Notes under the pieces: model-generated
Databases searched by the model: none
The model's input: only the letters and a program-made list of their open reading frames with translations
What the model was told of the DNA's origin: nothing
Assembly (NCBI GenBank): GCA_034226945.1
Contig: CP120462.1
Location: forward strand, 1-64,000
Direction of reading: 5' to 3'
DNA: 64,000 nucleotides
Source: Picochlorum sp. SENEW3
Taxonomy: Eukaryota
Shown here: in pieces, positions 58,281 to 60,294 of the stretch
Position numbering within the stretch: the stretch's first letter is position 1
How the letters are laid out: every line of letters starts with the position of its first letter
Made by a program: the position numbers and the translations under genes

Positions 58281-58609
58281 GTTTGGCTTGGTCTATTAAA
58301 AAAAAATCACCATTTCCCTTTTCAAGGAAATTTTTGTAGTAGAAAGAGTGGGTGTGCATCATGGAATATCCGAAACAGACCATTGTGGACGTGCCAGGTG
58401 GGTTCTATGTATTCGTATGGGTTTCCCAGATCCTCTCTTGAGATCACTCTTGTGGTGCAGAGCTGAAAAGATGCGAGGGCTCTGTCCACTTTGAAGAGCC
58501 TTCATCATCAGCCGCGACGACTGCTGTTCACATTCGCGACTGGTCCATTCGCTTGACTCATGGGTCTCGTATAGCATCCCAGGAAGAGAGAGAACGCCTG
58601 GAGGAGGAG

Positions 58610-59296
58610 ATGTATTCTTCTCAAGAGCAAGGAGAAGGCGATCAGGGGCCTACCATTCGGAATCTGCCCGAGCAGGTCTATTCGGAGAATGTCCTGGTGC
58701 TGGAGCACAGGCCCAGTGGGAACACCATCAGGTTCAGCGCAGCAGATGCGTTGCAGCAATGGATTTGTGACGGTAACGAGCCTATACAGTTGAATATATC
58801 CGAAAAGTGGCAGCAGGAGAGGAAGAAGGATGCAGCAGAGGCGACACGAGTGGTGTATGATTGGACATACACCACCTCCTATGTGGGGAGCTGTGAGGGG
58901 TGGGATGTCCCTCGAGAGACGCAGGAGCAGATGGACAAGGCTTTGTTGATGGATCGACGTGCTCCAATTCTAGTATTTGATTCATTCCCGCTGTACGTGT
59001 CCGAGTTGGACGACATGGGGGTGTCAGAAGCGAGTGTCAAAATACGAGTAATGCCAGAGTGCTGGTTTGTCTTGCTGAGATTCTTCCTGAGGATAGATGG
59101 GCAGCTTGTTCGAATACGTGACGCGCGATATTTCTGCAATTTTGGACATGGTGAGACTGTCTTGCGCGAGGTGCGATGGCAGGAGGCTACCTCGGGGGTG
59201 GGCTATTGCAATGCAGATGAAGCAGCACAGATGCTCCAAGCTCTTGCCCCGTCAGGAGTGCAACACTACGCGATGGAGAAGCTCTTCGTCGGATGA
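58610..59296 (+). CDS. TIP41: TIP41-like protein (PP2A/TOR regulator)
   Basis: LPEQVY, YDWTYTTSY, LYVSELDDMG and VKIRVMPECWFVLLRFFLRIDG. Confidence 0.92.
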   Translation: MYSSQEQGEGDQGPTIRNLPEQVYSENVLVLEHRPSGNTIRFSAADALQQWICDGNEPIQLNISEKWQQERKKDAAEATRVVYDWTYTTSYVGSCEGWDVPRETQEQMDKALLMDRRAPILVFDSFPLYVSELDDMGVSEASVKIRVMPECWFVLLRFFLRIDGQLVRIRDARYFCNFGHGETVLREVRWQEATSGVGYCNADEAAQMLQALAPSGVQHYAMEKLFVG

Positions 59297-59309
59297 GAAA
59301 ATAGCATGT

Positions 59310-59316
59310 AAAAAAA
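59310..59316 (-). terminator. Pol III oligo(T) terminator of the permuted tRNA gene
   Basis: T7 run on the minus strand about 34 nt downstream of the 5'-half end. Confidence 0.55.
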
Positions 59317-59349
59317 TTTTATATCAGAATTCATTCGTATCGATCAGCA

Positions 59350-59452
59350 CTTAAAACTGGCGTGTTAGACCACTCCACCACATGACCTCTGAGAGGGTAT
59401 CTCGGCTTGGTCATGACAGGGTTCGAACCTGCGCCCTCAAAGAGGACCAGTG
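59350..59452 (-). tRNA. Circularly permuted tRNA-Leu(UAA): 3' half 59452-59408, 20-nt spacer, 5' half 59387-59350
   Basis: Acceptor stem GGTCATG/CATGACC plus discriminator A; D arm GTGGAGTGGTCTAACAC; anticodon stem CCAGT/ACTGG with TAA; long variable arm CCTC-TTT-GAGG; T arm GCAGG-TTCGAAC-CCTGT; bulge-helix-bulge at 37/38. Confidence 0.9.
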
Positions 59453-59601
59453 TCTTCAGCATCACGATTGCCAAATCGGGAATTTCCTGTGGAATACTTC
59501 GGGTGGAGACCCCGAGGGGGGCGCCCAAAATTCCTCAAAAAAACCTGTCGAGACTGAGATACCCCAAATTCTCTTCTTCTTATTAAAAAAAAACGATATA
59601 A

Positions 59602-60294
59602 ATGCGGAGAATATTTTTACTCATCATTGCTGCCATGGTTTTGGCCAGCCACGATGGAGTCGATGCTCGGCAACAGAGAGAACTGAGCAGAGAGAGAGCA
59701 GTGTTGCAAACTGATTTTGGTGATATTCACCTCGCCTTTTATCCTACGATTGCCCCTCGCACTGTTGAACTCATTCTTGCACTGTTTGAGTTGGGATGCT
59801 ACAACGCAAATCATTTCTTCAGGGTCGACAAGGGTTTTGTTGCGCAGATTGCTGATGTCCAGAATGGTCGACAGGCACCCATGGACGAGCTACAGCAGAA
59901 ATGGGCATCCAAGACTGTTCCTTTGGAAGTACACGAGGACGTCAAGCATGATAGAGTAGGTATATTGTCCTTGGCAAGGCATGATGATCCAAACAGTGGA
60001 GGATCATCATTCAGTATTCTTCTTGGTCCGGCGCCACACTTGAACATGCAATACACAATTTTTGGCCAAGTCACCAAGGGTATTGAGACATTAGAGTCTC
60101 TCCAACAAGTCGAGACTGTGACTGAAGGCATCTTTGTGATGCCCAAAACGCGAATACATATTCACAGCACCTATGTGCTGTATTCGGATTCCTCTCTGAG
60201 ATGCTCAGAGTCTGTGGACCTGGTCGAAACAAGATTGAATTCGACGCTATGGAGTTTGGAAAGACTAAGGGAAACATCTCTTCCAGGTCATTAA
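59602..60294 (+). CDS. Cyclophilin-type PPIase with signal peptide (CYP23-like)
   Basis: FFRVDKGFVAQ, GILSLARHDDPNSGGSSFSILLGPAPHLNMQYTIFGQVTKG. Confidence 0.92.
   Translation: MRRIFLLIIAAMVLASHDGVDARQQRELSRERAVLQTDFGDIHLAFYPTIAPRTVELILALFELGCYNANHFFRVDKGFVAQIADVQNGRQAPMDELQQKWASKTVPLEVHEDVKHDRVGILSLARHDDPNSGGSSFSILLGPAPHLNMQYTIFGQVTKGIETLESLQQVETVTEGIFVMPKTRIHIHSTYVLYSDSSLRCSESVDLVETRLNSTLWSLERLRETSLPGH

Follow-up and report, generated by a model that had tools for sequence, protein, structure and literature searches.

The window, that is, the whole 64,000-nt stretch of DNA that was analysed, carries a tRNA-Leu(UAA) gene with its two halves in reversed order, antisense in the 305-nt gap between a TIP41-family ORF and a cyclophilin ORF. 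The TIP41 ORF is 100% identical to the NCBI entry 'TIP41-like protein [Picochlorum sp. SENEW3]', which bears out the trebouxiophyte-type genome proposed in an earlier note made from the sequence; the G+C content (41–50% in 4-kb windows) and the long, unbroken ORFs fit a streamlined picoalga. The features of the locus are:

58442..59296, plus strand: TIP41-family ORF (Pfam)
59316..59310, minus strand: T7 run lying 33 nt after G37, likely terminator for RNA polymerase III
59339..59349, minus strand: trailer part of the junction (U, GC, UGAU, CGAU)
59387..59350, minus strand: tRNA-Leu(UAA) 5′ half, 38 nt, positions 1–37
59407..59388, minus strand: spacer between the halves, 20 nt, unrelated sequence
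59452..59408, minus strand: tRNA-Leu(UAA) 3′ half, 45 nt, positions 38–73, discriminator A
59453..59468, minus strand: leader part of the junction (GA, UGAA, GC, UGAU, AUCG)
59469..59500, minus strand: upstream block conserved with metagenome contig L019; holds CAGGAAATTCC (59489..59479), GGCAATCG and a CAA motif
59602..60294, plus strand: cyclophilin ORF (Pfam)

Read along the minus strand, the succession of leader, 3′ half, 20-nt spacer, 5′ half, trailer and T7 matches exactly the arrangement that the earlier note had described; the 3′ half precedes the 5′ half on the same strand, which is the order of a permuted tRNA gene. The 3′ half comprises the 3′ strand of the anticodon stem, a long variable arm, the T-arm and the 3′ acceptor strand, and does not encode CCA; the 5′ half comprises the 5′ acceptor strand, the D-arm, the 5′ strand of the anticodon stem and the loop through UAA to G37. 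The leader ends on the minus strand in ...CAATCGTGATGC-TGAA-GA and terminates before the 3′ half in ...GGCAATCGTGATGCTGAAGA, whilst the trailer begins TGCTGATCG. The B box lies at 59429..59420, such that the A and B boxes occur in reversed order.

No run of four or more T residues is present in the 20-nt spacer, and a T-stretch stands behind the 5′ half. The T7 run is likely to be the RNA polymerase III terminator, because the permuted genes of algae are described as ending in this way (PMC3978253). An internal T4 in the 5′ half (positions 31–34) could act as a weak polymerase III stop. Small hairpins can be drawn in the spacer (4 bp in the window and 6 bp in L019, with unrelated spacer sequences); possibly RNase P or tRNase Z favours such a shape on a circular RNA, or the hairpins arise by chance. 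On the plus strand (59303–59316), just past the TIP41 stop codon, there is a TGTAA, which we take to be the usual green-algal poly(A) signal; it adjoins the A7 that lies opposite the T7 of the tRNA gene, and the TIP41 and tRNA genes probably share their 3′ ends. Four public sequencing runs (X2, X11, X15 and X17) were compared with 59200..59650 by a method whose filter drops contigs; three gave no contig, and X17 gave one RNA contig, which starts at 59613, inside the cyclophilin gene, and covers no part of the tRNA gene.

When the halves are swapped by coordinates, ARAGORN calls an 83-nt class II tRNA-Leu(taa), in agreement with the complete cloverleaf and TAA anticodon claimed previously. The swapped cloverleaf has a 7-bp acceptor stem, a 3-bp D-stem, a 5-bp anticodon stem (to which ARAGORN adds a 26–44 G-U pair), a variable-arm hairpin forming the long arm, a 5-bp T-stem with a GGTTCGAAC T-loop, and discriminator A. 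The ARAGORN drawing includes the conserved tRNA nucleotides U8, the D-loop GG, U33, G37, the GGTTCGAAC T-loop and A73.

With the halves left unswapped, the gene escapes standard scanners, as had been predicted: ARAGORN reports no tRNA gene in the 64-kb window with the intron option either on or off, and Rfam yields no match in the window at or above a family's gathering score. A permissive Rfam search of 59250..59550 returned three weak matches, all under the gathering score, one of which is a tRNA match (12.8 bits against a gathering score of 29) spanning the 5′ half and the trailer. The other two, a mammalian lncRNA exon (19.8 bits) and a Rhizobiales sRNA (9.5 bits), were taken as chance matches.

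Two controls address how often such a pattern occurs in this DNA. In the first, 170-nt segments tiled over the 64 kb (n = 2128) were each doubled, by which a permuted gene comes to read as an intron-containing gene, and were submitted to ARAGORN with introns allowed. Three segments were called, all of which overlap the permuted tRNA locus (two as Leu(taa) and one miscalled as Glu(ttc)). In the second, both strands were scanned for a T-arm followed by an acceptor 3′ strand, with a complementary 5′ acceptor strand no more than 80 nt downstream; this recovered two sites in the window, the permuted tRNA locus and one at approximately 2176. The latter has two G-U pairs in its 5-bp T-stem and no other tRNA feature, and looks like a chance match. 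The permuted tRNA feature at the locus is real.

The junction between the halves lies at positions 37/38 and, as read from the sequence, has the bulge-helix-bulge arrangement and the very elements (UUUA/UGAA, AG|U, GA|C and GC/GC) given in the earlier note. Pairing of C27-U31 with A39-G43 forms the anticodon stem. The 4-bp central helix is formed by U32-U33-U34-A35 with the leader UGAA (59458..59455) and includes one G-U pair; position 32 pairs with leader position −3. On the leader side, the 3-nt bulge consists of G, A and C38 (GA at 59454..59453), and on the trailer side of A36, G37 and U (U at 59349), with both predicted cuts falling after the second nucleotide of the bulge. Beyond the bulges, an outer GC/GC pairing joins leader 59460..59459 to trailer 59348..59347, followed by a symmetric 4 × 4 internal loop with UGAU on both sides, after which the leader AUCG (59468..59465) pairs with the trailer CGAU (59342..59339).

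Two 3-nt bulges, a 4-bp central helix and flanking helices are therefore all present in the junction. In ordinary 37/38 introns the cuts are placed in 3-nt bulges, and position 32 pairs with the third-last nucleotide before the 3′ cut; the geometry of the Picochlorum junction is canonical and like that of such an intron. According to the Soma 2014 review, more than two pairs are required in each flanking helix (PMC3978253), by which rule, as worded there, the outer helix in the window is borderline because it has 2 bp before the 4 × 4 loop.

Energy models do not favour the bulge-helix-bulge conformer. The free fold of the 161-nt region is unremarkable (z −0.35, with 75 of 200 shuffles at least as stable). 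When the cloverleaf is enforced, the GC/GC and AUCG/CGAU pairings are recovered and the 4-bp central helix is not; in the predicted minimum-energy fold, the leader GA instead pairs with two U residues of the anticodon loop. The explicit bulge-helix-bulge was evaluated at −32.7 against −38.8 kcal/mol, a gap that is overstated since the value was computed without the A39-U31 pair. The unremarkable fold energy of the region would suit a dead relic, i.e. a tRNA gene scrambled by tandem duplication and deletions whilst a conventional Leu(UAA) gene works elsewhere, and it is conservation in a relative that bears on this reading.

A survey of related genomes at the TIP41–cyclophilin locus had been proposed, and such a relative was found amongst metagenome contigs. 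These were scanned for a T-loop followed after 25–55 nt by a class II D-loop, a pattern that occurs at no fewer than 119 loci; among the matches listed, 102 of 123 are conventional genes, as judged by ARAGORN over both the T-loop and the D-loop, and most pattern matches are neighbouring ordinary tRNA genes in tRNA arrays. Also among the matches listed is a syntenic ortholog, contig L019 (1571 nt), which has the same two flanking genes and the same permuted order. Two blastn alignments link L019 to the window: one of 1105 nt at 83%, spanning the cyclophilin and the gene after it, and one of 308 nt at 81%, spanning the tRNA gene and the last part of TIP41.

All 38 positions of the 5′ half and 44 of the 45 in the 3′ half are identical in L019, the sole change lying in the variable-arm loop, such that 82 of the 83 tRNA positions are kept. 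The spacer measures 23 nt in L019, compared with 20 nt in the window, and matches in 5 of 23 columns. Of 21 columns in the proximal leader (20 nt), 19 agree with L019, compared with 3 of 20 in the proximal trailer; of the junction part of the trailer, L019 keeps GC alone and lacks the 15 nt that follow it downstream. Two substitutions adjoin the cut sites, G to U at leader −2 and U to C at trailer +1, both of which fall in the bulges. L019 retains the UGAA/UUUA helix and the GC/GC pair unaltered, and its outer helix gains a third pair (A-U), giving three pairs. In place of the T7 of the window, L019 has T5-A-T4.

Retention of the halves and the junction alongside a diverged spacer is the pattern expected if the halves and junction are used and the spacer is discarded, and the contrast between 82/83 tRNA positions and 5/23 spacer columns indicates that both halves are kept under selection in this relative. 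No compensatory change was found in any helix between the window and L019, the one ortholog compared; the indication of selection comes from conservation, not covariation, in a single relative. Against the dead relic described above, conservation of the halves stands beside diverged flanks (57 of 142 columns in the intergenic DNA further upstream), whereas a relic would decay like its flanks, and the junction helices and terminator are also kept in L019. We consequently regard a relic as very improbable.

The same contig bears on whether the permuted order might be an artefact of assembly, in which a tandem pair of complete tRNA genes was collapsed or mis-joined. No point in support of an artefact was found. 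L019 was assembled independently, from a metagenome, and shares the order of the halves with the window while differing from it in spacer and flanks; in the window itself, no 5′ half is seen in the leader and no 3′ half in the trailer. A tandem pair was also sought directly, and ARAGORN finds no complete tRNA gene in 59300..59500 or in the window as a whole. The probability of an assembly artefact is in our judgement minimal.

No TATA-like box was found within 50 nt upstream of the permuted gene. Over leader positions −21 to −48, L019 agrees in 19 of 28 columns, a higher proportion than in the DNA further upstream. Approximately 30 nt upstream of the 3′ half, the near-palindromic CAGGAAATTCC (59479–59489, minus strand) is identical in L019, amid intergenic DNA that has diverged. 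The block 59469..59500 may serve the tRNA gene as an upstream promoter or start region, or be an element that it has in common with the divergent cyclophilin promoter; CAGGAAATTCC itself could be part of either promoter. Since the A and B boxes occur in reversed order, an upstream element likely drives transcription.

The reversed boxes, which in the account of the Soma 2014 review are unsuited to normal TFIIIC binding (PMC3978253), could also be taken to mean that the locus does not yield one precursor at all: the halves might be made as separate RNAs and joined in trans, as a split tRNA, or the locus might serve mainly as DNA, for example as a B-box factor site between divergent genes. Its position within the 305-nt gap between two protein genes would fit the latter. 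However, the halves share a strand and are separated by just 20 nt that contain no T-run, and every stem and loop of both halves is conserved, not the B box alone. Split tRNA genes have long complementary flanks, whereas here the complementarity between leader and trailer is restricted to the junction, where it forms a short bulge-helix-bulge. These observations make separate halves, or a DNA site, a decidedly unlikely account.

From the order of its parts, its cloverleaf, the geometry of its junction, its terminator and its conservation in a relative, the locus is very probably a working, circularly permuted nuclear gene for the cytosolic tRNA-Leu(UAA), of type II, with its junction at 37/38. 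Its transcription, circularisation, end processing and use in translation would proceed as in the published algal cases. On this model, RNA polymerase III would start in the conserved upstream block and produce a transcript consisting of the leader, 3′ half, 20-nt spacer, 5′ half and trailer, ending at T7. The tRNA body would then fold, with the spacer as a loop closing the acceptor stem, and the leader and trailer would pair with each other and with positions 32–35 of the anticodon loop to form the bulge-helix-bulge. Cleavage by the tRNA-splicing endonuclease after G37 and before C38, followed by joining of G37 to C38 by tRNA ligase, would give a 103-nt circle. RNase P and tRNase Z would open this circle at G1 and after A73, respectively, with loss of the spacer, and addition of CCA would complete an 86-nt tRNA for UUA codons.

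A need for this product follows from codon usage. The window has 24 ORFs of at least 300 amino acids, with 1184 leucine codons between them; 82 of these codons are TTA, spread over 22 of the ORFs. By the wobble rules, UUA can be read only by a leucine tRNA with U34; as TTA is in use, the cell must make tRNA-Leu(UAA).

Several further candidates for permuted tRNA genes were noted in the metagenome contigs. L007 (2501–2556, minus strand), and likewise L014 and L057, carry a permuted tRNA-Leu(UAA) with a 37/38 break and an 11-nt spacer. L007 is an AT-rich contig of 78 kb that looks like a giant virus of algae, with neighbouring genes for an SNF2 helicase, a YqaJ-like viral recombinase, RNase III and a SWIB protein. 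Its permuted tRNA is nearly the same as that on L054, a eukaryote-like contig where the neighbours are an ELO elongase and an Asp/Asn hydroxylase, and where a 665-aa ORF gave two matches only in a protein search; the near identity suggests that the viral gene is a copy of a host's permuted gene. The Picochlorum junction is near the strict form, whereas those on L054 and L007, judged by eye, have only three of the four central pairs. Bathycoccus and two of its viruses are described as carrying permuted tRNAs, and the five viral tRNAs listed in that paper for BpV1 and BpV2 exclude Leu(UAA) (PMC3673656).

L016 (minus strand, approximately 1175) and L117 (minus strand, approximately 301) also show a permuted Leu(UAA) with a 37/38 junction; the spacers are 8 and 20 nt long, respectively, and the acceptor stems differ. 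In L016, a T10 run directly follows G37, and no clear ORF was found on the contig. A different arrangement is seen in L089 (plus strand, approximately 301–400), L063 (plus strand, approximately 421–520), L105 and L071, which have class II tRNA-like genes with the 3′ part first. In these, the 5′ part breaks off a little past the D-arm, before the 5′ strand of the anticodon stem or inside it, with a T-run or A-run directly behind and ordinary tRNA genes around; if real, this junction is outside the five published types.

The Soma 2014 review tabulates 34 permuted tRNA genes, with an intervening sequence of 1 to 74 bp overall and 5 to 74 bp in algal genes (PMC3978253, Table 1). A 2026 review on photosynthetic organisms, in the relevant passages, attributes permuted genes to O. 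tauri, red algae and the Bigelowiella nucleomorph (PMC13578239). The Soma 2014 review also reports that sequencing in red and green algae recovered precursors, circular intermediates and products with a CCA tail (PMC3978253).

For Picochlorum, no report of a permuted tRNA was found in the literature searched, which included work on Chlorella and Trebouxiophyceae and from 2016 onwards. The chromosome-scale SENEW3 paper annotated tRNAs using tRNAscan-SE 2.0; the word 'permuted' is absent from its text, and its supplements are without a tRNA list (PMC11092101). Across three Picochlorum assemblies, tRNAscan-SE gave 24 to 75 nuclear tRNA genes (PMC6141220, Table 1). The published Picochlorum tRNA sets come from tRNAscan-SE, and a permuted Leu(UAA) would therefore be missing from them. 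Codon-usage models and transgene design based on lists that lack Leu(UAA) would be wrong for UUA, in a genus of fast-growing, salt- and heat-tolerant algae used in biotechnology.

The novelty envisaged in the earlier note, which knew of no permuted tRNAs in trebouxiophytes, stands for the genus Picochlorum and falls for the lineage: permuted tRNA genes were reported in 2025 for the trebouxiophyte Auxenochlorella UTEX 250-A (Plant Cell 2025, PMC12636532). It is further weakened because the same isoacceptor and junction are entered for two prasinophytes in Table 1 of the Soma 2014 review (PMC3978253). The layout is rare and already known from other tiny green algae; Picochlorum adds a genus, the second amongst trebouxiophytes. 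The finding is of value for annotation and for tracing how the layout is distributed in evolution, and offers no new mechanism.

It may be asked whether the permuted gene is the sole UUA-reading gene in Picochlorum, and whether the 37/38 permutation of Leu(UAA) is ancestral to Mamiellophyceae and core chlorophytes instead of having been invented repeatedly; that both hold is a speculative proposal, which we consider unlikely. If it were true, RNA circularisation would have been essential to green-algal translation for most of the history of these algae, and many published green-algal tRNA sets would be incomplete for that reason.

Five known systems come closest to the Picochlorum gene. The gene resembles ordinary nuclear tRNA genes with a 37/38 intron in its cut sites, in the bulge geometry, in the pair between position 32 and the third-last nucleotide and, on the proposed route, in the enzymes. 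It differs from them in that the 'intron' is split into leader and trailer and the exon order is reversed, as a result of which ligation would yield a circle and not a linear tRNA. The split tRNAs of Nanoarchaeum equitans share the break after position 37 and the joining through a bulge-helix-bulge, but their halves reportedly lie at separate loci, each with its own promoter, whereas those of Picochlorum are 20 nt apart on one strand. These split genes are cited as Randau et al. 2005 in the relevant passage of the 2026 review (PMC13578239).

With the red alga Cyanidioschyzon merolae, as described by Soma et al. 2007 (via PMC3978253), the gene shares the order of 3′ half, spacer and 5′ half, the bulge-helix-bulge at the junction and a T-stretch downstream. 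Maturation through a circular intermediate has been demonstrated in C. merolae, whereas the Picochlorum gene is known here from its DNA anatomy; the C. merolae Leu(UAA) is of type I, with its junction at 20/21 and an intron, and the review describes TATA-like elements upstream of the permuted genes of this alga, none of which is clear in Picochlorum (PMC3978253).

Auxenochlorella is, like Picochlorum, a trebouxiophyte with a streamlined genome, in which permuted genes complete the set left incomplete by tRNAscan-SE; the sole example shown, which also appears in the supplement, is tRNA-Pro(UGG), as opposed to Leu(UAA) in Picochlorum, and the available text of the report mentions neither Leu(UAA) nor Picochlorum nor a survey of relatives (PMC12636532). 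A further likeness is to the Leu(UAA) genes of Ostreococcus lucimarinus and Micromonas pusilla, for which a 37/38 junction and spacers of 25 and 20 bp, respectively, are listed (Maruyama et al. 2010, via PMC3978253). These match the Picochlorum gene in isoacceptor, junction, similar spacer length and lack of an intron, and are likewise nuclear genes of streamlined green picoalgae, although they belong to Mamiellophyceae and Picochlorum to Trebouxiophyceae, and the likeness is drawn from entries in Table 1. The same isoacceptor broken at the same position as in prasinophytes bears on whether the layout is ancient or has originated repeatedly in streamlined genomes.
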